This document shows positions 10,770 through 63,453 of a DNA stretch of 64,000 nucleotides, piece by piece (the stretch's first letter is position 1; every line of letters starts with the position of its first letter). Source of the stretch: an uncultured Candidatus Saccharibacteria bacterium (GTDB lineage: Bacteria; Patescibacteriota; Doudnabacteria; UBA920); the NCBI GenBank assembly GCA_964453265.1, contig CAYVNU010000003.1:3957-67956 (forward strand), written 5' to 3'. A program made the position numbers and the translations under genes. The notes beneath the pieces are model-generated. The model was not told the origin of the DNA. It saw only the letters and a list, made by a program, of their open reading frames with translations, and ran no database searches.

Positions 10770-11093
10770 GACTAAATATTTTATTGGAATATTCCAGGCC
10801 ATACTTAACGCCTGCCCCACCGCAGCGGCTATCCGCAAACCCGTAAAACTACCCTGGCCTTTGTATACAATAATCTTTTTAAGCTCAATTTTTGGATCTT
10901 TAATCTTATTTGATTTCAAAAATATATCCAAGTCATTTAGAATTTCCGAACTTTCACGAGGCTTCACGGCAAAAGACTTCTGCTTGTCTTTTTTCCCCGA
11001 TTTAGATAGTTTAAATACTAACTTTCCATATTCAGCGGTATCGATCTGCAGGATATTTTTGTCAATTTTGTTCATTTTTGTCATTTTTGTCAT
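10749..11093 (-). CDS. tsaB: tRNA t6A biosynthesis protein TsaB-like (short, N-terminal domain only)
   Basis: KGQGSFTGLRIAAAVGQALSMAWNIPI matches the GPGSFTGxRIG core of TsaB/YeaZ; only 114 aa; N-terminus encoded by a 9-bp tandem repeat. Confidence 0.55.
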   Translation of the reverse strand: MTKMTKMNKIDKNILQIDTAEYGKLVFKLSKSGKKDKQKSFAVKPRESSEILNDLDIFLKSNKIKDPKIELKKIIVYKGQGSFTGLRIAAAVGQALSMAWNIPIKYLVKKTLRS

Positions 11094-11097
11094 TTTT
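11060..11097. repeat. 9-bp tandem repeat (tttgtcatt x about 4) forming the overlap between Mur ligase C-terminus and tsaB-like N-terminus
   Basis: ttgtcaattttgttcatttttgtcatttttgtcattttt; encodes KNDKNDKNEQN in one gene and MTKMTKMNKIDKN in the other frame. Confidence 0.8.
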
Positions 11098-12612
11098 ATT
11101 TAGTTCTTCTTTCGCTACGCTTACTTCGTCCCATTCTATGCGATGGTTCCCGGGCAAAACCAAAAATTGTTCGCTACCCTTGCCGGTAATTAAAACAATA
11201 TCATTTTCTTTAGCCAGTTTCAACGCTTCAGCTATGGCATAACGCCTGTCTAAATGCCGCTCTATCCTTTTCTCTTTTCTCTTTTCTCTTAGAACTGTAT
11301 TTATTCCCTCTTCAATATCTTCCGCTATTCTTTCCGGATCACTATCATACACATCGTCGTTGGTGATTATAATGGTGTCAGCAATTTGTGCGGAAATTTG
11401 TCCAAATAAAAATCTTTTTTGCACATCGCGGTGCCCGCCCGTTGAACCAAATACATGGATTAATTTGTTGTGAGGCAAGCTACTTGCAGCCATTAGCGCT
11501 GCTTTTATAGAAACCGGTTCGCAACCATAGTCTACAAAAATTTTAAAGCCTCTATTATTTTCCACTTCTTCCATTCTCCCGCGAATTTTTGTAAAGGTAG
11601 ATATTGCTTTAGCCGAGTCTTCTAATTTTATACCAAGCTGGTTGGCTGTGACCGTAGCAAGCAATGCATTGTACAAATTAAATTCGCCGGGCAGTTTAAC
11701 TTGAAAAGTTACATTGCCAATTTGAAATCCGTCATTCAATTTATTCGCCTTAATATAACTAACCCCCTCTAACTCCCGCTTTGACAAGGGGGAGGATTCA
11801 GAATTCCCCTCCTCTTTAAAGGAGGGGTTAGGGGAGGTTATATTTAATCTGGTTGATATTTTTTTCTCCGCATTAAACTGTAAAAACCACTCAGCATTTT
11901 CATCATCCCCATTCACAATAATAGTTTTGCTGACTTGCTTACCGGCTGACACGCTTACCAGCTTACTCGCTGACTCACTTACCGCTTCAAACAACTTTCC
12001 TTTCGCCTTTCTATAATTTTCAAACCCGCCGTGCGCTTCTATGTGAGCGTGAGACAAATTAGTTAAAACTGCTAAGTCAAACTTTATTCCCAAATGTCTG
12101 TTTTGCGCCAAGCCCTCCGACGTACATTCCACCACTGCGTATTTACAACCGTTATTTAAAATTTGTCTAAGCTGTTTTTGTAAAAGCCACCCGCCCGGCA
12201 TACTTAAACCGTGTTTGTTTATATATTCCGTTTTCCCGTCAAAAAAACTTACGGTGGTAATAAACCCCGCTCCACTTTTTATTGTACTTTTTACGTTTGT
12301 GTCTTTTGTGCTTAATTCCATAGCAACCTGATCACTACTTTTAACATCTGAAAAGTGGGGCGGGGTAAACCCACAACTCTGCTTTCCCTCCTCTCCCTTA
12401 AGGGGAGAGGCTGGGTGAGGGTGGTAATTTAAAATGCTCGATAACATCTGCACCGTAGTCGACTTCCCTGCCGTTCCAGTAACTCCTACTACAATCATTT
12501 TTGATGACGGATTACCAAAATACCAACTCGCCACAATAGCTAAAAACCCGTGGTAATACGGGCGTAAAAATTTAAGTACTGTATTGGGAATAATTTTTTT
12601 TATTAAATTCAT
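11062..12612 (-). CDS. murE: Mur ligase family protein, MurE-like (UDP-MurNAc-tripeptide synthetase) carrying in-frame palindromic-element insertions
   Basis: VGVTGTAGKSTT P-loop, LTNLSHAHIEAHGGFENYRKAKGKLF, C-terminal FGSTGGHRDVQKR and ITGKGSEQFL; two inserted segments (HPHPASPLKGEEGKQSC and PSFKEEGNSESSPLSKRELEG) encoded by palindromic repeats. Confidence 0.8.
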   Translation of the reverse strand: MNLIKKIIPNTVLKFLRPYYHGFLAIVASWYFGNPSSKMIVVGVTGTAGKSTTVQMLSSILNYHPHPASPLKGEEGKQSCGFTPPHFSDVKSSDQVAMELSTKDTNVKSTIKSGAGFITTVSFFDGKTEYINKHGLSMPGGWLLQKQLRQILNNGCKYAVVECTSEGLAQNRHLGIKFDLAVLTNLSHAHIEAHGGFENYRKAKGKLFEAVSESASKLVSVSAGKQVSKTIIVNGDDENAEWFLQFNAEKKISTRLNITSPNPSFKEEGNSESSPLSKRELEGVSYIKANKLNDGFQIGNVTFQVKLPGEFNLYNALLATVTANQLGIKLEDSAKAISTFTKIRGRMEEVENNRGFKIFVDYGCEPVSIKAALMAASSLPHNKLIHVFGSTGGHRDVQKRFLFGQISAQIADTIIITNDDVYDSDPERIAEDIEEGINTVLREKRKEKRIERHLDRRYAIAEALKLAKENDIVLITGKGSEQFLVLPGNHRIEWDEVSVAKEELNKNDKNDKNEQN

Positions 12613-15250: not shown

Positions 15251-15373
15251 TAAGCTTACTTCAAAATTCCAATCCTCCTTCGCCAAGGCTTCCAACTTCG
15301 CCAAGGCTACGTCGGACGAGTCGGCGGACCTATCGTAATAAATTACATCCGATAATAATCGGAGTTTAGTTTT

Positions 15374-17437
15374 ATGAATAAATTTGTACTAAAATCTAAA
15401 TTTAAGCCCGCCGGAGATCAGCCACGCGCGATTGAGGGTCTTTTAAAGTCGCTTAAAGCAAAAAACCGTTTTCAAACTCTACTTGGCGTTACAGGTAGCG
15501 GCAAGACTTTTACTATGGCCAACATAGTAGAAAAAATTCAAAAACCCACACTAATTATTTCCCACAACAAAACCTTAGCCGCGCAACTTGCCGCGGAATT
15601 TCAAGAATTTTTCCCAGACAACGCGGTTCACTATTTTGTCTCGTATTACGATTATTATCAGCCAGAAGCCTACATCCCCCGTTCAGATACCTACATAGAA
15701 AAAGATACCCAAATAAATGAAGAGATCGATCGTTTGAGAAACGCTGCCACCCAAAGTCTTTTGTCTAGAAAAGATGTTTTAATAGTAGCATCTGTTTCCT
15801 GCATTTACGGTCTTGGCGACCCGGCTAACTATTTAGATTTGGCAATGAGTTTTAAAGAAGGAAAGGATTATAAACGAGACAAGTTACTTAGAAGACTAAC
15901 AGATTTACAGTACCACCGTAACGACACAGAACTAGTGCGCGGCACTTACCGCGTGCAAGGTGATGTAGTAGAAATTATCCTTTCGAGCGAAGACACCATT
16001 ATTCTAATGGATTTTTTTGGCGACACGCTAGAAAAAATAGAAAGATTGGATGCCGTAAGTGGACACAAAATAGAAACCTTAGAAGAATTTACCATTTTTC
16101 CCGCTAAGCACTTTGTCACGCCCGAAGAAAAACTAAAAGCTGCTACAGAAAATATTCGTGCAGAAATGTTAGACCGAGTAAAATATTTTAAGTCCCAAAA
16201 CAAACTTATAGAGGCTCAAAGAATAGAACAACGTACAAACTTTGACTTAGAAATGTTAAGTAATACAGGCTTTGTTTCCGGTATAGAAAACTACTCTAGG
16301 CAAATAGAAGGGCGTGAAGCGGGCTCTGCTCCGTCTACTTTAATTGACTACTTTCCCGACGACTTTTTACTTTTTGTAGACGAGTCACATCAAACTATTC
16401 CGCAAATTGGCGCTATGTACGAGGGCGACAAGTCGCGCAAAACCAACTTGGTTGACTACGGTTTCAGACTCCCCTCTGCGCTCGACAACCGTCCGCTTAA
16501 GTTTGATGAATTTGAAAAGAAAATTAATCAAGTCGTTTTTGTTTCAGCAACGCCGGCGCCTTTTGAAATTTTAGCCTCTGTAAACCAAAAAATTCCTAAA
16601 AAGGTTGAGGGTGAAAAATTAATGGTTACCGATGTTAAGCAGACAGACACTATAGTCGAGCAGTTAATAAGACCGACCGGCCTACTCGACCCCACCATAG
16701 AAATAAAGCCCATAAAAAACCAGGTTGATGATTTAATAGAACGCATACATGAACGTATAAAAAAACATCAACGCGTGTTGGTTGCCACACTAACTAAACG
16801 CATGGCCGAGGAACTAACCGAGTACTTAAAAGAAGACGGAGTAAAAGTGCAGTACCTGCACAGCGATGTAGATACTTTTGAACGTTTAGAGATTTTGCGC
16901 GATTTAAGACTTGGCGTTTTCGATGTTTTAGTCGGCATTAACTTACTCAGAGAAGGTTTAGATTTACCCGAAGTTTCTTTAGTTGCAATTCTAGATGCGG
17001 ACAAAGAAGGATTCCTTCGCTCTGAAACTTTCTTTATGCAAATGATGGGCAGAGCAGCGCGTCACCTTGAAGGTCATGTTGTAATGTACGCAGATAGAAT
17101 TACAGGAAGTATGCAAAGAGGGATTGATGAAACCACCCGCAGAAGAAAAATCCAAGAAGCCTACAATAAAAAACACGGTATAACCCCCAAAGGCATACAA
17201 AAAGCTATTGCCGATTCGCGCATGGCAGGCCAAAGGTCCCCCGAAGCTTTAGCGGAGGGGGAAAGCAAACTATATCGTGACCCAAGCCGTATGGACAAAG
17301 AAGAACTAAAATTCTACCTCCACGAACTAGAAGAACAGATGGATTTAGCAGCAAAAAATTTGGAGTTTGAGACAGCCGCAAAGATTCGCGATAGAATTGA
17401 AGAAATAAAAACCTTAAAACGTTTGAGTAAAAAATAA
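15374..17437 (+). CDS. uvrB: excinuclease ABC subunit B
   Basis: 687 aa, GVTGSGKTFTMANI Walker A, UvrB helicase motifs and C-terminal UVR domain (EFETAAKIRDRIEEIK). Confidence 0.97.
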   Translation: MNKFVLKSKFKPAGDQPRAIEGLLKSLKAKNRFQTLLGVTGSGKTFTMANIVEKIQKPTLIISHNKTLAAQLAAEFQEFFPDNAVHYFVSYYDYYQPEAYIPRSDTYIEKDTQINEEIDRLRNAATQSLLSRKDVLIVASVSCIYGLGDPANYLDLAMSFKEGKDYKRDKLLRRLTDLQYHRNDTELVRGTYRVQGDVVEIILSSEDTIILMDFFGDTLEKIERLDAVSGHKIETLEEFTIFPAKHFVTPEEKLKAATENIRAEMLDRVKYFKSQNKLIEAQRIEQRTNFDLEMLSNTGFVSGIENYSRQIEGREAGSAPSTLIDYFPDDFLLFVDESHQTIPQIGAMYEGDKSRKTNLVDYGFRLPSALDNRPLKFDEFEKKINQVVFVSATPAPFEILASVNQKIPKKVEGEKLMVTDVKQTDTIVEQLIRPTGLLDPTIEIKPIKNQVDDLIERIHERIKKHQRVLVATLTKRMAEELTEYLKEDGVKVQYLHSDVDTFERLEILRDLRLGVFDVLVGINLLREGLDLPEVSLVAILDADKEGFLRSETFFMQMMGRAARHLEGHVVMYADRITGSMQRGIDETTRRRKIQEAYNKKHGITPKGIQKAIADSRMAGQRSPEALAEGESKLYRDPSRMDKEELKFYLHELEEQMDLAAKNLEFETAAKIRDRIEEIKTLKRLSKK

Positions 17438-17493: not shown

Positions 17494-18249
17494 CTACTTT
17501 CCTACTACCCTCTCATACTTCTCCGCGCTTTGCCAAGCCATTTCAAAAATGGTTTTAAGGGAAGTTACCACGCCTTTGCTGGTAATAACCACGACAAATA
17601 AGTAAGGCGAATAAGAAAAAAAGGCTACACTGTCTTTAAAAAAAACATTGTCGGTTAGAAATTGCATATTTTTTGGCACAAATCTGTTTTCATAAAATTC
17701 GTGCTGCGGCATTTTACGCGCGTGGATTAAGTCTTCCGCACTTTGCGTTAAGAGTTCCCGTACTTTTATTTTTTTTGCCAAAGCCATATTCTTTAATTCG
17801 CCCGGCATATATTCAAACGCACCCATTACGTCGGAAATATTACAAAAAAAATCTACCTCAGGGGAGGCAAAAACTTTTTTGTAAACTTCCAAAACACCCT
17901 CTTTGCCTTCAAACAACTGAATTTGCGGCTTTTCAACTTTTGCGTTATAAAGCGCCAGCATATTCGGCATAAACCTTTTTACCATTTCCTGCTTTTTGTG
18001 TAAGTCCCCTATTATTTTTTCCGGGCTCTCTGCGGTATAGAGAGCTTTTTTTGCGCGTGGCACCACGCTAACCAAACCTTTTTTTACCAACTGTTCCAAA
18101 ATTAAATAGGTAGTCGGCCGCTTTATTTCCGCTTTATTGGAAATGGGGTGCACCGTAGCAGTACCCAATTCCAAAAGCGCCAAATAAACTTGCGCTTCCT
18201 TTTCGTCTAAACCTACTTGTTTTAATACATTTACTATTTCCATGTGCAT
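17494..18249 (-). CDS. TrmB-family transcriptional regulator
   Basis: N-terminal winged-helix LGLDEKEAQVYLALLELGTATVHPISNKAEIKRPTTYLILEQLVKKGLV typical of TrmB sugar-responsive regulators. Confidence 0.7.
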   Translation of the reverse strand: MHMEIVNVLKQVGLDEKEAQVYLALLELGTATVHPISNKAEIKRPTTYLILEQLVKKGLVSVVPRAKKALYTAESPEKIIGDLHKKQEMVKRFMPNMLALYNAKVEKPQIQLFEGKEGVLEVYKKVFASPEVDFFCNISDVMGAFEYMPGELKNMALAKKIKVRELLTQSAEDLIHARKMPQHEFYENRFVPKNMQFLTDNVFFKDSVAFFSYSPYLFVVVITSKGVVTSLKTIFEMAWQSAEKYERVVGK

Positions 18250-18254
18250 TTATT

Positions 18255-18375
18255 CCTTCTCCTTTTAAGGAGAGGGTTAGGGAGAGGTTGAATTCTATAG
18301 ATAGCAACAATACTACATGTCATCCCGGCCTGCGACATTATCCTCCGTAGCTTTAGCGAAGGATGGAGCCGGGAT
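18255..18375. repeat. composite intergenic repeat: palindromic element (family A) plus CCGTAGCWTTAGCGAAGGA element (family B) flanked by atcccggc/gccgggat inverted repeat
   Basis: ccttctccttttaaggagagggttagggagagg at 18255-18287 resembles in-gene copies at 12386-12424 and 62899-62934; ccgtagctttagcgaagga at 18345-18363 matches 24072-24090. Confidence 0.6.
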
Positions 18376-18503
18376 CCAGTTTAATTAGCTATTTCCATTA
18401 TATTCCCCTTTCTCATTTTTGTCAACTTTTCTGACAAATAAATAATACTTAATGAATATACCTATAAACAAAGCTATTTAGTATATTTAATTAGTCATAC
18501 TTA

Positions 18504-21184: not shown

Positions 21185-21865
21185 ATGAAAAATCATATTA
21201 TTCTTTTGGCCACGCTATGCGTGGCCACCCTGTGTCCAAGGGGGGCGCTTGGACAATGGGAGGCCGAGGCGCGGCTGGCGCCTCACACTCCCAAAGAATT
21301 TTCGGAAGGACATGGCGAGTCCTTCCGGAACGTGGGGGAGGCATGGTTCCGTCTCCCCTCCCTGCGGGGTTTCCGCGGGGAAACAGGAGCCTTCCGGACC
21401 GGCGACTCGTTTGTCGCCGTGTTCGGAGTTGAAAAGGAGTTGGCACACGACCAACTCCTGCCAGGCATTTTTGCCTGGGTTGATTCCGGCGGCATCCGGC
21501 CTGCCGCTGGGATCTCGTGGGCTCGGCATAGCCGAGTAGCTTTAGAGGGGCACGCCATTATGGCGTCCCCGAAAAAACTGCTCGGCCGCAGTGACGCAAG
21601 CCTAAGCCTCACAAGAGGCTTTGCGCTTGGTGTTACTGCCGAGCTAGACCCTGCCCCACACGGCAGGGCGTGGGGTTTGGGGCCTCACGTTAAAAAACAA
21701 ATCAAAGGAGCCGAGCTGGTGCTCGGCCACCTTTGGAAAATTGAAGGGGAAGGAGCCGAACGCCACGGCGAACCTTCCACTCACCCCATGAACCGCGAAT
21801 GGTTCGTGGGTATTAAATTCGCTCTCGGCCACCCCAAGGCCGAGGGCAAAAAATCTCACCACTAG
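21185..21865 (+). CDS. secreted hypothetical protein on second GC-rich (about 62%) island; possible outer-membrane beta-barrel/lipid A deacylase-like
   Basis: N-terminal signal peptide MKNHIILLATLCVATLCPRGALGQ, glycine/aromatic-rich, C-terminal EWFVGIKFALGHP; all six frames open across 21198-21862 as expected for GC-rich coding DNA. Confidence 0.5.
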   Translation: MKNHIILLATLCVATLCPRGALGQWEAEARLAPHTPKEFSEGHGESFRNVGEAWFRLPSLRGFRGETGAFRTGDSFVAVFGVEKELAHDQLLPGIFAWVDSGGIRPAAGISWARHSRVALEGHAIMASPKKLLGRSDASLSLTRGFALGVTAELDPAPHGRAWGLGPHVKKQIKGAELVLGHLWKIEGEGAERHGEPSTHPMNREWFVGIKFALGHPKAEGKKSHH

Positions 21866-23763: not shown

Positions 23764-24079
23764 AAATCTCCTTTGAATAAGGTAATATTGACTTTTCTAA
23801 CATTGGCTTATTCATAAGTATTTTTGCCTATGTTCCAAAATGGAACTTATGGCCAGTTACCCGGAATTTCCAGATAACTCAACTGTTTCCATTTTAAAAA
23901 AAATGCGTGTTCTCTTGTGCATTTATAGTATACAATCGTTTACCTAGCGTCAAACCCGCTAGAAAGCCTAACAAATAAGGGTTAACAATATTTTATCCAC
24001 TGTGTAATTTAAAAAGCTTTCTACTAGGTCTTATTGAGCCCTATAAATTTTGATCATTTTTACCTTGCCCGCCGTAGCA

Positions 24080-27028
24080 TTAGCGAAGGAGAGTCATTTC
24101 TTCCATCTCTCCCCAATTATCCCCCACCTTGCCTTCCACTTTTATAGGAACCGAAAGTGATATAGCTTGTTCCATCATTGGAATTAACTTCTTCGCCCAC
24201 TCCTCCACTTTGTCTTCCTTTACCTCAAAAACCAATTCGTCATGCACCTGAAGTAGCATGCGAATTTCCGAGCTTATTGGCTTATTAGCTGAACCGATTA
24301 TTAGCTTGTGAATATTAATCATCGCCACTTTAATTACATCGGCCGCCAAACTCTGAATAGGAAAATTCACTGCCGCTCTTTCCGCTGCCGCGCGTATAAA
24401 AAATTGCCCTGACTTTATTTCCGGAAACTTTCGCATTCGGCCTAGCTCATTACGTACAAAACCTTCTTGGTTAACTTGGAGCTTTACCTGCTCTATATAC
24501 TGCTCAACCTGGGGGTAAGCTTCAAAATATTTTCTTATGTATTGTTTCGCGTCGCCCATTGTCATTTCGCCAACTCGTGCCGATAAACCAAAACTAGATA
24601 CTCCATACAAAATTCCAAAGTTAATAGTTTTGGCATCACGCCGCATATCTTTTGTAAGTTGTTCTGATGATACGCCAAAAATTTCCATAGCCGTCTTACT
24701 ATGAATATCTTCACCATTCTTAAACACTTCCATCATCTTTTTGTCTTTAGCCAAATGCGCCACAATGCGAAGCTCTATTTGGGAATAGTCTAAAGACAAA
24801 AGTTTATAACCTTTTTCCGCCACAAAGGCTTTTCTTACCTGACTGCCCAAGCCTTCACCCCGCACAGGGATGTTCTGCAAATTAGGGTCAATGCTGGAAA
24901 GCCGCCCCGTTGCCGCAATAGTTTGGTTATAACTCGTATGTAGCCTGCCGGTTTTTTTATTTACCATTTCCGGTAAAGTTGTAAGATAGGTACTATACAA
25001 CTTTGTAACCTCTCTATACTCTAAAATTTTTGGAATTATGTCGTGCTGTCCAAGCATCTTCTCCAAGTTATCAGCAGAAGTTGAAACGCCCGTCTTAGTG
25101 CGCTTGTTATTCGTCGCCTCAAGCTTCATTTCGTCAAACAAAACTTCTTTAAGCTGCTTAGGCGAAGCTATATTAAATTCGTGTCCGGCTAATTTATGAA
25201 TTTTCTTTTCTAAATCTTTAATATCTATTTCCGCCTCCCCGGCAAGACGGTTTAAAAGCCTAACGTCTAACTTAATGCCGTTTAATTCCACGTCTGCTAA
25301 AACTTCCATTAAGGGCATTTCTATTTCTGTAAATACTTTAGTAAGATTATTCTTTTTAAGTTCCGGTTCAAACAACTCTTTTAAACGCAAAGTCATATCT
25401 ACGTCTTCACAGCAATACCAACTGACTTTCTCCTTTGGTACTTGATCCATTGTGATTTGGTTCTTACCGACCCCAATTAGATCGGTTATGGGCTGCATTT
25501 GGTAGCCCAGTTCGTTAAAAGCCAAAGCATCTAAACCGTGCTGTCGAGTACCGGCGTTAAGCAAGTACGATGCGATCATGGTATCAAAACTAGCAGTAAG
25601 TTGTAAGTTGTAAGTTGTAAGTACTTGCTTGTCGTACTTTATGTTGTGACCAATTAACTTAACCTTACCCGATGTAAGCAGGGTTTTTAGTTCAGTCGAT
25701 GATGTAAAAAGTTTCGCCGGAACATAAAAAGCCTTACCTGGCTTATCGCATAACCCAACTCCCACTAATTCCGCGGTAATTGGGTCAAGGCCTGTGGTTT
25801 CTGTGTCTACACTAATTTCTAAAGCAGATGACAATCCCTTCATCATCTTCTGTAATTTTTCTTCTGTATCAACAAACTCATAATCCTGCTTTCCAATACT
25901 ACCACCTCCCCCGCCTGCGGCGGGTACTCCTCCTGTTCCAGGAGGAGAGCTTCCACCGTCGCTAAAACTACGGCGGTCAGTCTGCAGCTCGCCCGACGAA
26001 GCCTTGGCGAAGTCGGGAGCCTCCCCTCCTAATATAGGAGGGGTGTCGCCGTTAGGCGACGGGGTGGTATTTTTCGGCAACTTATTCAACAAATTCCTAA
26101 ACTCCAAACTCTGAAATAACTTCACAGTCTGTGACAAATGTTCTTGGTCTAATTCGTAAGCTTTTATTTCCGGGTCTATGCCCGGCACGTTGCACACTAT
26201 AGTAGAAAGTTCGTAAGACATTTTAGCCTGATCTTCCTGCTCAAGCAATAAATTAAGTATTCTGGATTTGAAATTGGAAATTTTAAAATTATTTGGAAAT
26301 TGGAAATTGGAAATTGGAAATTTGGCGCCTTGGGTTTTAGCTTCAAGATGCAATTTATCGTACAATTTTTCCAATGATCCAAAATATTTAATTAACTCGC
26401 TGGCGCCTTTCTCTCCTATGCCTTTAACTCCCGGAATGTTGTCACTCGGGTCACCTCTTAAAGCTTTGTAGTCCACCATTTGGTCAGGGTTCAGCCCAAA
26501 CCTAGCTCTTACCGCTTTACTGTCGTATATAACTGTATCTGCAAGTCCTTTGCGCGGCGTGTAAATTTTTACTTTGCCGTTTACTAACTGCAAAGTATCC
26601 ATATCGCCGGTTAAAATAAATATTTCAGAATTCTCGTGACTTTTTTCATGAAAGTGTTTAGACAGCGTGCCTAAAACGTCATCCGCCTCAAAACCTTCCT
26701 TTTCGTAAATTGGCACATTCATTGCGCGCAACACATTTTTAATAACCGGTATTTGGTCGTACAAAGCCTGGTCAGCTTTTACTCTGGTTGCTTTATATTC
26801 TTTATATTTTTCATGCCTAAAAGTCGGCCCGGCTAAGTCAAAAGTCGCAGCTACATGAGTAGCCTTAATTTCCTTCATGGCCTTTAAAAATATAGTTAAA
26901 AACCCAAATACGGCGCCCGTCGGCCTACCGTCTTTGGTAGTTAAAGTAGGCAAAGCATGGTACGCCCTATGTACCAAAGCATTACCGTCTATAAGTAAAT
27001 AACGTTCTTTTTGTACTTTTTCCGGCAT
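24080..27028 (-). CDS. polA: DNA polymerase I (5'-3' exonuclease, 3'-5' exonuclease and polymerase domains) with low-complexity inserts
   Basis: 982 aa; 5' nuclease N-terminus, polymerase motifs LSLDYSQIELRIVAHL (motif A) and QVHDELVFE (motif C); GC-rich insert 25899-26072 and 7-bp microsatellites inside the linker. Confidence 0.93.
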   Translation of the reverse strand: MPEKVQKERYLLIDGNALVHRAYHALPTLTTKDGRPTGAVFGFLTIFLKAMKEIKATHVAATFDLAGPTFRHEKYKEYKATRVKADQALYDQIPVIKNVLRAMNVPIYEKEGFEADDVLGTLSKHFHEKSHENSEIFILTGDMDTLQLVNGKVKIYTPRKGLADTVIYDSKAVRARFGLNPDQMVDYKALRGDPSDNIPGVKGIGEKGASELIKYFGSLEKLYDKLHLEAKTQGAKFPISNFQFPNNFKISNFKSRILNLLLEQEDQAKMSYELSTIVCNVPGIDPEIKAYELDQEHLSQTVKLFQSLEFRNLLNKLPKNTTPSPNGDTPPILGGEAPDFAKASSGELQTDRRSFSDGGSSPPGTGGVPAAGGGGGSIGKQDYEFVDTEEKLQKMMKGLSSALEISVDTETTGLDPITAELVGVGLCDKPGKAFYVPAKLFTSSTELKTLLTSGKVKLIGHNIKYDKQVLTTYNLQLTASFDTMIASYLLNAGTRQHGLDALAFNELGYQMQPITDLIGVGKNQITMDQVPKEKVSWYCCEDVDMTLRLKELFEPELKKNNLTKVFTEIEMPLMEVLADVELNGIKLDVRLLNRLAGEAEIDIKDLEKKIHKLAGHEFNIASPKQLKEVLFDEMKLEATNNKRTKTGVSTSADNLEKMLGQHDIIPKILEYREVTKLYSTYLTTLPEMVNKKTGRLHTSYNQTIAATGRLSSIDPNLQNIPVRGEGLGSQVRKAFVAEKGYKLLSLDYSQIELRIVAHLAKDKKMMEVFKNGEDIHSKTAMEIFGVSSEQLTKDMRRDAKTINFGILYGVSSFGLSARVGEMTMGDAKQYIRKYFEAYPQVEQYIEQVKLQVNQEGFVRNELGRMRKFPEIKSGQFFIRAAAERAAVNFPIQSLAADVIKVAMINIHKLIIGSANKPISSEIRMLLQVHDELVFEVKEDKVEEWAKKLIPMMEQAISLSVPIKVEGKVGDNWGEMEEMTLLR

Positions 27029-61370: not shown

Positions 61371-61789
61371 GAATGACAAGATTTAAGACAACTTGCCCGG
61401 GTGATTTTTAATAGCGGTATTGCGTGAAGCCGTCATAATAGCTGTTATTTCGTCAGCCTCTTTTAACAAATCTTCAACAAAAGATAGTTCTACAATTTCT
61501 GAAGCGATTAATAATTCAAGCCAGCCTAAAGTTTCGTCAGATTCTTCAACCACCGTACCCATTTTAGAAATAAAGTCTTTAGGAGACTTGCATCTGCATG
61601 CTGCGCGGTAGTTACTAAAAACACTGGTTCCTGAGCGCATTATTTGGTCACCAATTTTTTTGCCTGTATTTCCGTGGTTCTTTTCTAGGTATTGTGCAAG
61701 TTTTATTATACTAACCGCAAACTTTTTTGTTCTGGCTTTTAATTCGTTGGGATTCATAATCATTTAAATCATTTAAATCTTGTCATTCT
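61371..61789. mobile_element. inverted-repeat-flanked cassette around the intact four-helix-bundle gene (IVS-like hairpin element)
   Basis: gaatgacaagatttaa (61371-61386, overlapping stop codon) and its reverse complement ttaaatcttgtcattc (61774-61789, 11 nt upstream of start codon); extra atttaaatga direct repeats on both sides. Confidence 0.55.
61383..61763 (-). CDS. four-helix-bundle protein (23S rRNA intervening-sequence protein family), intact copy
   Basis: FAVSIIKLAQYL...IGDQIMRSGTSVFSNYRAACRCKSPKDFISKMGTVVEESDETLGWLELL matches TIGR02436-type consensus. Confidence 0.7.
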   Translation of the reverse strand: MIMNPNELKARTKKFAVSIIKLAQYLEKNHGNTGKKIGDQIMRSGTSVFSNYRAACRCKSPKDFISKMGTVVEESDETLGWLELLIASEIVELSFVEDLLKEADEITAIMTASRNTAIKNHPGKLS

Positions 61790-62469: not shown

Positions 62470-63453
62470 TTACAGCGTTGTAATTGGTCTGCTTTGGGTA
62501 ATATAAAATTTTCCTTTTTCAAAAGCCCATTCAATATCTTGCGGTTGTTTGTAGTGCTGTTCAATTTTTTTGCAAATTTTTGCAAGTTCTACAATTTGTT
62601 TTCCGGAAAGTTTTTGCTTGCCGCCTTCTTTTGTAGAAAGTCTTTTATTTATGTTACCTTTTTCAGTTTTTACAATTTTCATATTTTGCTCAGAAATATT
62701 TATGTTCAAAATAGAAAAATCTTTTTTGTCTATTATGTAGGTGTCAGGGGTTATAAGTCCCCCGACTATAGCTTCGCCCAAACCAAAGCCGCCTTCTATA
62801 ACCATTTGATTGTAGTTTTTAGTAACCGGATGCACGGTAAAGCAAATGCCGGAAACTTCGCTCTGCACCATTTTTTGAACAACCACGGCTACACTAATAC
62901 CTCCTCTCCCTTTGGGAGAGGGTTGGGGTGAGGGTTCCTTTTGTTTGGTTGCCTTGTAAAACCCTTTCTCAAACCCGTAAAATATAGCTCTAGGTGTAAA
63001 TAAAGAAGACCAGCACATTTTAACCTGCTTGATCAGATTTTTTTCAGTAACATTTAGGTAAGTTTCTAACTCCCCTGCCCACGAGGCAGTTTTGCTGTCT
63101 TCGGCTGTAGCGGAAGATCTGACAGCAACAAACTTTGCACCAAGTTTTTTATATTCGCCTGATATTTCTTTTTGTAAATTTTCTGGCATCTTTTCCTCTA
63201 ATATTAGTTTTCGTATTTCGCTACTTGCTTTGTCTATGGAACTTATGTCTTTAGGGTTTACTTTTTTTAAAATCAACTGTATGCCAGCCTTGATTTTAGT
63301 TTCTTGTATAAACTTGTCAAAAGCCCCGGCTAAAACTACAAAACCCGGCGGTACGTTTACTCCTGCTTTGCTCATTTCACCCAAAGACGCACCCTTACCT
63401 CCGGCAATTTTTACGTCCTTTTTAGAAAGTTGTAAAAAAGTTTTTATGTTCAT
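62470..63453 (-). CDS. PEP synthase/pyruvate phosphate dikinase N-terminal ATP-binding (PPDK_N) domain protein with in-frame palindromic-element insertion
   Basis: KIAGGKGASLGEMSKAGVNVPPGFVV nucleotide-binding motif; SPQPSPKGRGG segment encoded by repeat at 62899-62934. Confidence 0.75.
   Translation of the reverse strand: MNIKTFLQLSKKDVKIAGGKGASLGEMSKAGVNVPPGFVVLAGAFDKFIQETKIKAGIQLILKKVNPKDISSIDKASSEIRKLILEEKMPENLQKEISGEYKKLGAKFVAVRSSATAEDSKTASWAGELETYLNVTEKNLIKQVKMCWSSLFTPRAIFYGFEKGFYKATKQKEPSPQPSPKGRGGISVAVVVQKMVQSEVSGICFTVHPVTKNYNQMVIEGGFGLGEAIVGGLITPDTYIIDKKDFSILNINISEQNMKIVKTEKGNINKRLSTKEGGKQKLSGKQIVELAKICKKIEQHYKQPQDIEWAFEKGKFYITQSRPITTL

Follow-up and report, generated by a model that had tools for sequence, protein, structure and literature searches.

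A 64-kb stretch of contig CAYVNU010000003.1 from an uncultured Doudnabacteria genome, hereafter the window, carries seven copies of a small three-arm DNA module, and six of the seven lie inside open reading frames (ORFs) of a MurE-like Mur ligase, a PPDK_N-domain protein and DNA polymerase I. Each module comprises a pyrimidine arm, a purine arm complementary to it and a third arm in which the purine arm recurs in mirror order. The modules belong to the known BoxC/PIT/TM class of bacterial repeats. The motif class itself is not new, but searches of the open literature gave no description of its in-frame genic habit, of arms shifted towards AT, of nested or composite forms or of a host from the candidate phyla radiation (CPR). 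Comparison with homologous loci suggests that the modules are probably selfish repeats maintained for their structure, quickly gained, lost and replaced, and filtered by translation where they land in genes.

Seven modules in the window

The modules were found by their geometry. Our detector sought, on one strand, a pyrimidine arm (Y), a loop, a complementary purine arm (R), a second loop and a third arm (H) mirroring R, where H had to agree with the reversed R sequence, G standing against G and either A or T against A. At strict thresholds (at least seven triplets and at most one mismatch per pairing) it returned exactly the four copies reported in a first-pass annotation of this DNA, at essentially the same coordinates and with 8-10 triplets each, compared with a mean of 0.125 matches per shuffled window (40 block shuffles). 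The chance expectation of a consensus search was 0 matches. A scan admitting long loops added three further modules, giving seven per 64 kb, and returned 0 matches in shuffled windows (20 shuffles). The modules and their host genes are as follows.

11806-11840, plus strand: triplex-type module at Mur ligase site 3; Y arm CCCCTCCTCT, loop TT, R arm AAAGGAGGGG, loop TTA, mirror arm GGGGAGGTTA
11761-11794, minus strand: inverted partner of 11806-11840 in the Mur ligase; CTCCCCCTT, GTCA, AAGCGGGAG, TTA, GAGGGGGTT
12390-12421, plus strand: triplex-type module at Mur ligase site 1, directly past the P-loop helix; CCTCTCCC, TTAAG, GGGAGAGG, CTG, GGTGAGGG
18255-18289, plus strand: intergenic module, 6 nucleotides (nt) upstream of a TrmB-family ORF; CCTTCTCCTT, TT, AAGGAGAGGG, TTA, GGGAGAGGTT
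25900-25947, minus strand: module in the PolA linker, member of an inverted pair; GC hairpin of 17-18 nt nested in loop 2
26023-26069, plus strand: module in the PolA linker, member of the same inverted pair; GC hairpin of 17-18 nt nested in loop 2
25900-26069: PolA composite palindrome of ~170 nt, made of the two inverted modules and two further small palindromes between them
62902-62934, plus strand: module in the PPDK_N gene; TCCTCTCCC, TTT, GGGAGAGGG, TTG, GGGTGAGGG
11062-12612, minus strand: host gene, Mur ligase (MurE-like), 516 amino acids (aa)
24080-27028, minus strand: host gene, DNA polymerase I
62470-63453, minus strand: host gene, PPDK_N-domain protein, 327 aa

Three forms can be told apart: the single module (~33 nt; range 32-35), the inverted pair (~80 nt) and the composite (~170 nt). 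Five have loops of 2-5 nt and 3 nt, and the two PolA modules carry structured inserts of 17-18 nt in loop 2. The G-rich strand is the plus strand in all four originally reported copies. One purine arm, that of 11761-11794, contains a single C; the same arm is perfect in the related locus L124.

Read with the C-rich strand as sense, module 11806-11840 encodes SPNPSFKEEG. The peptides of other genic copies are SSPLSKRELEG for 11761-11794, HPHPASPLKGEEG for 12390-12421 and EPSPQPSPKGRGG for 62902-62934. The first-pass annotation had stated that genic copies keep the reading frame and had quoted three peptides, correctly in each case. The second palindrome that it placed at 11769-11795 is real and is our fifth module, on the opposite strand at 11761-11794, and the window copies bear out its grouping of genic and intergenic copies into one DNA-level family.

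The third arm is a mirror repeat

What sets the modules apart from simple hairpins is the third arm, which in each module repeats the purine arm in mirror order with 0-1 mismatch. It is neither a direct repeat nor merely G-rich; the earlier annotation had missed the mirror relation. The mirror can be seen in asymmetric arms: AAAGGAGGGG is followed by GGGGAGGTTA, AAGGAGAGGG by GGGAGAGGTT and, in a module of the related locus L123, GGGAGGGG by GGGGAGGG. In a set of 17 asymmetric arms taken from the window and from related CPR loci, the mirror rule gave 5 mismatches in 153 positions and a direct-repeat rule 72 in 153, a count that is partly circular because most of these modules came from a detector that demands the mirror rule. 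The four original copies were chosen by eye without that rule, and the copies in homologs were located through protein insertions and only afterwards shown to be modules. Third and purine arms co-vary, with 14 distinct purine arms among 19 modules.

A Y-R-H arrangement with an antiparallel third strand of G, A or T defines the class II, or purine-motif, intrastrand triplex. This layout allows a single DNA strand to form a hairpin with the third arm occupying its major groove. Folding of each module as single-stranded DNA gave the Y/R hairpin with H unpaired. We infer that the complete fold forms on single-stranded DNA in vivo. Four tracts of at least three Gs with short loops, the signature of a G-quadruplex (G4), occur in the 62902 copy only; the other copies have GG tracts.

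Identity with a published repeat class

The three-block architecture, present in all seven modules, is that of a motif already in the literature. Holder et al. (2015) gave it as 5'-CCCTCNCCC-N3-6-GGGNGAGGG-N3-GGGNGAGGG; it was named BoxC first, then PIT element, then TM_ECO, and Hoyne et al. (2000) are cited there for the motif (PMC4666352). TM_ECO counts 3,610 copies in 262 proteobacterial genomes, with a second loop of TTA (type A) or CCG (type B) and with pairs in inverted arrangement, and its single strand forms a triplex in vitro by circular dichroism (CD) and nuclear magnetic resonance (NMR) (PMC4666352). The same study cited Hoyne and Maher for a lack of promoter and terminator activity, and it reported an association with local genomic instability, copy numbers that are very uneven among close relatives and, in E. 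coli, no association with mobile elements (PMC4666352). All 23 copies in E. coli MG1655 are intergenic (PMC4666352, PMC5100583), and Kaplan et al. (2016) interpreted the E. coli family as a G-quadruplex/hairpin switch (PMC5100583). In Enterobacter sp. 638, ~100 hairpin copies occupy gene 3' ends (PMC2869309).

The published TM_ECO consensus, with one stem mismatch allowed, matches 62902-62934 only. The other six modules are AT-shifted variants, predicted to form triplexes by analogy with the E. coli motif. The first-pass annotation knew of no Rickettsia palindromic elements described for genomes of this kind; the modules are not peculiar to this genome, and their architecture is that of the published BoxC/PIT/TM_ECO motif (PMC4666352), found in many phyla. 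An Rfam scan of the whole window gave no family matching the modules, and a search of the window for tRNA and tmRNA genes found none.

Genic copies are lineage-specific insertions

Comparison with homologs agrees with the earlier proposal that the genic copies are lineage-specific in-frame insertions. In the PPDK_N-domain protein, 327 aa long here vs a modal 311 aa in homologs, the segment is missing from the closest relative, P0122 (87 % identity by BLASTP, 92 % over the alignment). In DNA terms the window carries 48 additional nt, module included, at a site that is empty in loci L121 and L122. The window's position is filled in 12 of 120 homologs and a second position in 21 of 120, by peptides similar in kind and different in sequence (SPRPSPKGRGG, SPTSPNPSSGRRG, PHPTLSRKGRGG, PPLRGRGKGRG), and some inserts hold a second, nested element, as in SPSPHPSRP-SFAKATADK-QGRG. 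Fitch parsimony on a neighbour-joining tree puts the minimum number of changes at 7 for site B and 12 for site A, and the three nearest neighbours of the window's protein are empty at both sites.

The Mur ligase is likewise longer than its homologs (516 aa vs ~440 aa). Among these homologs its site-3 pair is confined to two fragments of 85-91 % identity; those of ~60 % identity lack it. Site 1 holds different variants in several lineages and is empty in most homologs; in L124 the site-1 variant is unlike that of the window, between flanks that are 86-87 % identical, and is nearly identical to the site-3 copy of L124 itself. Between the window and L124, identity reaches 96 % in the site-3 pair and 87 % in the coding DNA around it; in the pair, third codon positions are 96 % identical vs 77 % in the flanks (Fisher p ~0.02), an excess that comes from 80 nt in one comparison.

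The PolA composite is read in frame and sits between the 5'-3' exonuclease and 3'-5' exonuclease domains. Of the relatives listed with full-length alignments, the two closest, P0242 and P0243 (83-84 %), have a short linker without it, another (P0241, 84 %) has a partly different insert, and several relatives of 66-69 % identity carry similar composite peptides. A composite homologous to that of PolA interrupts RecG in another CPR genome (L272, GCA_003151625.1). The shared unit is ~140-170 nt long, its end units are clearly similar, and an alignment of three sequences has a mean column identity of 69 %. The two composites share orientation and frame, with the peptides TTPSASRPPLLKEGGEAP...RRSLSSFSKEEYPAKRGEVV in RecG and TTPSPNGDTPPILGGEAP...RRSFSDGG in PolA.

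One DNA module, several frames and both orientations

The same module DNA is translated in different ways. The prevailing reading takes the C-rich strand as sense and yields PSPNPS-type peptides, while DNA of homologs shows a second frame in L274 (PLPNPLLKRRG), a third in L275 (HHTLSRKGRGG) and the G-rich strand as sense in L273 (PPLRGRGKGRG): at least three frames and both orientations. The first-pass annotation had all copies read in the same frame, which is right for three window copies and fails in relatives, where other frames and the opposite orientation occur; we therefore rejected a common frame as a property of the family. The intergenic 18255 copy differs by a single base from the in-frame Mur site-1 copy of L274. 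Together, varied frames and orientations and an intergenic twin suggest, on comparative sequence grounds, that constraint acts at the DNA level and not at the protein level. We infer that the inserts have no function for the host protein.

Single modules do favour a C-rich sense strand (~10 of the 12 observed, which are not all independent), because two of the three frames on the opposite, G-rich strand are interrupted by TGA and TAG. An orientation linked to replication was rejected: single modules have the G-rich strand on plus on both sides of the putative replication origin (oriC, below), and their orientation is consistent only relative to the host gene.

The insert positions are predicted to be disordered loops; that they were loops had been supposed by the earlier annotation. 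In an AlphaFold2 model of the Mur ligase (mean predicted local distance difference test score, pLDDT, 80.9), the only segments below 50 are residues 66-111, which cover the site-1 module and a neighbouring 37-aa insert, 259-272, which cover the site-3 pair, and 218-224, a separate small insert. All three lie between modelled secondary-structure elements. The PPDK_N model (mean pLDDT 84.2) has a single segment below 50, residues 169-184, exactly the inserted peptide. The four low-pLDDT segments of the two models thus all correspond to inserts, three of them with a peptide from a triplex module.

The one intergenic copy adjoins a gene start. The TrmB-family gene next to the 18255 module has its ATG at 18249 on the minus strand, and the purine arm AAGGAGAAGG lies 1-10 nt upstream. 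This arm is likely the Shine-Dalgarno sequence of the gene. In the mRNA, the AAGGAGAAGG arm can pair with the CCCTCTCCTT arm.

The motif across bacteria and viruses

Searches of other genomes used an exact pattern for the canonical form with 22 specified bases, for which we estimate ~1 chance match in the whole collection. In a collection of species-representative genomes it was found in at least 120 genome-contig stretches from many phyla; the matches listed include Pseudomonas, Xanthomonas, Enterobacter, Acinetobacter, Planctomycetota, Dehalococcoidia, Cyanobacteria, Bacteroidota, Verrucomicrobiota, Omnitrophota and Bifidobacterium. Beyond the specified bases, these listed matches have in common the extended consensus (C)CCCTCTCCC-N3-5-GGGAGAGGG-YYR-GGGGTGAGGG, and the shared 30-nt consensus spans phyla of 35-73 % GC. 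In low-GC genomes, most canonical matches lie outside long ORFs.

Genic copies are not unique to CPR bacteria and look sporadic elsewhere. Canonical copies lie in frame in a CN_hydrolase of Ginsengibacter, an HsdR SWI2/SNF2 ATPase and the inter-domain linker of a transketolase; the loci of genic canonical copies are L010, L038, L104 and L015. A further copy, in a Vampirovibrionales metagenome-assembled genome, is probably in frame within a PrmC methyltransferase with weak Pfam support.

Viral sequences contain the motif as well. The canonical form occurs in at least 120 IMG/VR viral contigs and in 6 of 50,697 curated phage records; with many of the former and so few of the latter, we do not claim phage transmission. 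A viral variant with a hairpin nested in loop 2, CCCCTCCT-loop-AGGAGGGG-T-[GC hairpin]-GGGGTGGT, was found in at least 40 IMG/VR contigs of 35-69 % GC (L291-L330, for example L320, L309 and L321). Its nested stems co-vary, with 15 different stems. A C-GNA-G triloop, looked for as a hint of folding as DNA, is present in only 9 of 35 nested hairpins, a suggestive share that we do not count as evidence. The viral variant often stands beside T-runs in a terminator-like arrangement, and an Rfam scan of ten viral loci that carry it found no family match; one unrelated tRNA was the only hit in the Rfam scans of these loci and the window.

What maintains the modules

We regard a selfish, structure-maintained repeat of the BoxC/PIT/TM class as the probable explanation. 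The modules would act at the DNA level as copy-and-paste repeats, probably selfish or neutral, whose gain, loss and replacement are rapid in evolutionary terms. Genic survivors would be those that are in frame, free of stops and placed in tolerant surface loops or linkers, where they would be translated into disordered peptides rich in Pro, Ser, Gly, Glu and Lys. Copying may be a structure-dependent process on single-stranded DNA during replication or repair, by template switching or gene conversion, which is our best guess over a classical transposase. The structure itself would be what is maintained, for its propagation, and the copying process would presumably act on the folded single strand. 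Sequence comparison indicates that the motif can reside within essential genes and be translated; it turns over between relatives 83-91 % identical, and its three-arm geometry is kept while frame, orientation and peptide change. Genic life, turnover and kept geometry together constitute comparative evidence that selection or a copying process acts on the DNA fold.

Several points weigh against this explanation. A target-site duplication, a transposase domain and a consistent replication orientation were all not found in the window. The junction between filled and empty PPDK_N sites shows no target-site duplication, defined ends or terminal inverted repeats. Among ~53 window ORFs scanned, none has a transposase, RAYT (REP-associated tyrosine transposase) or integrase domain; this negative covers 64 kb of the genome, and a mobilising enzyme may be encoded elsewhere. 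In vivo, dimethyl sulphate (DMS) footprinting of TM_ECO gave no triplex signal (PMC4666352). The occupancy of insertion hot spots could reflect an old insertion followed by many losses and sequence turnover. The partial circularity of the mirror count and the 80 nt behind the Mur site-3 excess belong here too.

Function is the first alternative to weigh. The modules could be nucleic-acid switches (G4/hairpin/duplex, or an mRNA hairpin with an internal Shine-Dalgarno-like purine arm) that act on transcription, translation initiation or ribosome pausing and owe their place in genes to that role. The E. coli motif has been treated as a G4-hairpin switch (Kaplan et al. 2016, PMC5100583), the 62902 copy has four tracts of three or more Gs, purine arms resemble AAGGAGG, the ribosome-binding site that the 18255 copy supplies to the TrmB-family gene could be sequestered, and several inserts stand at domain boundaries, as in the PolA linker. 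Yet most CPR variants have GG tracts only and hence weak G4 potential while keeping the mirror rule, the closest relatives manage without inserts, genes hold both orientations, and the E. coli motif lacks promoter and terminator activity (PMC4666352, citing Hoyne and Maher). Functional readings at large, whether a G4/hairpin switch, ribosome pausing or Shine-Dalgarno sequestration at the TrmB-family gene, are weakened because the closest relatives lack the inserts and both orientations occur, and we consider the switch unlikely. Selection on the peptides, with the DNA symmetry a by-product of flexible linkers of the PSPxPSPKGEG type, would account for inserts that are in frame, stop-free and in loops. 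It is very improbable and already contradicted by our data: the same DNA gives unrelated peptides in different frames and orientations, an intergenic copy exists, the three arms co-vary, the inserted peptides have pLDDT below 50, and the closest relatives do without them.

Two other accounts concern origin. Modules might arise locally and repeatedly, without copying, by slippage or fold-back template switching in purine/pyrimidine-rich DNA that encodes loops, and converge on one form; arms of low complexity (the GGGAGAGGG type), loops that are hot spots across lineages and the lack of a visible target-site duplication would fit. However, fold-back synthesis yields inverted and not mirror repeats, near-identical modules of 33-35 nt stand at unrelated sites (L124 site 1 and site 3; 18255 and the L274 Mur site 1), PolA and RecG of different genomes have a composite of ~140-170 nt in common, and a single 30-nt consensus extends across phyla of 35-73 % GC. 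We consider convergence a little less likely still than the switch. Less likely again is movement in trans of true MITE- (miniature inverted-repeat transposable element), RPE- (Rickettsia palindromic element) or REP-type (repetitive extragenic palindromic) elements by a transposase encoded elsewhere, such as a RAYT or an IS200/IS605 Y1 enzyme. RPE-like in-frame behaviour, a composite of RPE-like size (~170 nt), patchiness among close relatives here and in enterobacteria (PMC4666352) and the presence of the motif in viral contigs speak for it. The modules have no terminal inverted repeats or target-site duplications, though; no transposase domain was found in the 64-kb window, Holder et al. (2015) saw no mobile-element association in E. 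coli (PMC4666352), and the canonical motif is in only 6 of 50,697 curated phage records.

If the modules are selfish repeats kept for their fold, as we favour, a bolder extension suggests itself, which we offer tentatively and think rather unlikely as a whole. The pan-bacterial motif might be a true mobile element whose folds are its only "genes", copied on single-stranded DNA by a host or phage replication or repair activity, moving between phyla, possibly on phages, and serving in reduced CPR genomes as a regular source of surface loops and linkers in essential proteins. Repeats of the BoxC/PIT/TM class became known in the 1990s and, to our knowledge, lack an accepted function or mode of spread; were the extension true, the in-frame CPR copies would be the first system for dissecting that long-unexplained spread. 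Open-literature searches returned no description of in-frame triplex or palindromic elements in CPR/Patescibacteria, nor of the new features reported here, and published accounts (Holder 2015, Kaplan 2016, Enterobacter sp. 638) place copies between genes or at their 3' ends (PMC4666352, PMC5100583, PMC2869309). For CPR genomics, the modules explain some lineage-specific insertions in otherwise conserved proteins. They extend the idea that selfish DNA creates protein segments, so far mainly a matter of Rickettsia, to another lineage with reduced genomes, and they carry a warning for annotation, as segments of the PSPxPSPKGEG type are repeat-derived.

Other repeats and neighbourhood

The window is a core chromosomal region of ~38 % GC that carries rpoB/rpoC, the Mur ligase, FemAB, ruvABC, uvrB, polA, dnaA-dnaN-recF, rnpA-yidD-yidC, a class A penicillin-binding protein and tyrS. 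Its best protein homologs are labelled Candidatus Doudnabacteria or Patescibacteria. Between 48935 and 51156, dnaA-dnaN-recF run leftward and rnpA-yidD-yidC rightward, and cumulative GC skew reaches its minimum. The chromosomal replication origin is probably at ~50.3-50.8 kb, since dnaA points left, rnpA points right and the skew minimum falls there.

A second insert adjoins the site-1 module of the Mur ligase. It is ~108 nt long and in frame (12262-12368, sense on the minus strand, residues 78-114), has 16-nt terminal inverted repeats (ACCCCGCCCCACTTTT and AAAAGTGGAGCGGGGT) and is flanked on both sides by GGGTTTA, a possible target-site duplication. Among aligned homologs only P0016 has a similar peptide at the site, and a search of the window and of 275 fetched loci turned up no further copy.

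A second palindromic family, with the core TTCGCNAARGCTNCG and the peptide FAKAT or FAKAS, has 6 matches in the window vs 0.16 expected. Some of its copies are intergenic, some lie in frame within the linkers of UvrB and PolA, and one spans the end of polA, where the element provides the stop codon; they include the following.

15279-15311: FAKAT-type copy
17242-17256: FAKAT-type copy
18346-18360: FAKAT-type copy
24073-24087: FAKAT-type copy
25997-26011: FAKAT-type copy

In other CPR genomes a FAKAT-type element is nested in loop 1 of triplex modules (SFAKATADK). In the window, a ~60-nt intergenic palindrome at 18319-18379 (tcatcccggcc...ggagccgggatcc), directly downstream of the 18255 module, encloses one.

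Two further loci stand out. The ORF at 21185-21865 (226 aa) is GC-rich in a genome of ~38 % GC, has a signal-peptide-like N-terminus, dense GC hairpins and no Pfam match, and may be foreign DNA. The gene at 61383-61763, outside any rRNA gene, encodes a "23S rRNA intervening sequence protein" (PF05635).

Comparison with known systems

Rickettsia palindromic elements are the obvious comparison, and the first-pass annotation had seen their hallmark here. RPEs are ~150 bp long, form ten families in Rickettsia and encode a conserved peptide in one frame (PMC10969869). Like them, the modules are palindromic repeats that lie in frame in unrelated conserved genes of a small, AT-rich, reduced host genome, are tolerated by the protein and also occur between genes. 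In-frame, fold-compatible copies occur in the window's Mur ligase, PPDK_N and PolA and in the RecG of another genome; those in the two modelled proteins lie in low-pLDDT loops. Unlike RPEs, the modules are ~33 nt long and belong to a pan-bacterial motif; their third arm is a mirror repeat, and translation uses several frames and both orientations. Single modules of 32-35 nt fall short of the ~100-150 bp of an RPE, which the PolA composite alone (~170 nt) reaches, and one peptide in one frame and one orientation is not what the family shows. We rejected RPE identity on these size and frame/orientation data, the features that the comparison covered. The annotation was right about RPE-like behaviour, that is, lineage-specific in-frame inserts in loops, and wrong about the identification: the elements are neither RPEs nor a new family.

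Transposon-related repeats fit less well. We rejected REP/REPIN elements with a RAYT, since copies are mostly intragenic and the scanned window ORFs contain no Y1_Tnp or other transposase domain, and MITEs, since the filled/empty PPDK_N junction has neither a target-site duplication nor defined termini. GC-rich palindromic clusters and double-hairpin elements of fungal and sponge mitochondria have spread in AT-rich compact genomes. By description they are alike in being GC-rich hairpin repeats sometimes tolerated in coding regions and unlike in being organellar and unrelated in sequence; we know of no mirror third arm described for them.

The HPG1/HPG2 G4-hairpin-duplex switch motifs are this E. 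coli family again, described from a G4 point of view (Kaplan et al. 2016, PMC5100583). Its E. coli members are intergenic, with pairs on opposite strands less than 50 bp apart (PMC5100583), whereas most CPR variants lack four G3 tracts and lie inside ORFs.

The closest match is BoxC/PIT/TM_ECO. Both have consecutive Y-loop-R-loop-H blocks on one strand, stems of 8-10 nt, a first loop of 2-5 nt, a second loop mostly of 3 nt and often TTA, and an H arm that mirrors R with T allowed opposite A. Both are multi-copy with inverted pairs, and 11761-11794 with 11806-11840 resembles the TM_ECO pairs of E. coli; both are patchy among relatives and linked to local sequence turnover. The window's modules differ in that six of seven lie in ORFs, translated in frame with Pfam domains on both sides, in their AT-shifted arms (AAGGAGGGG, AAGGAGAGGG), in the hairpins nested in loop 1 or 2 of some copies and the ~170-nt composite, and in their host, a CPR bacterium of 38 % GC.

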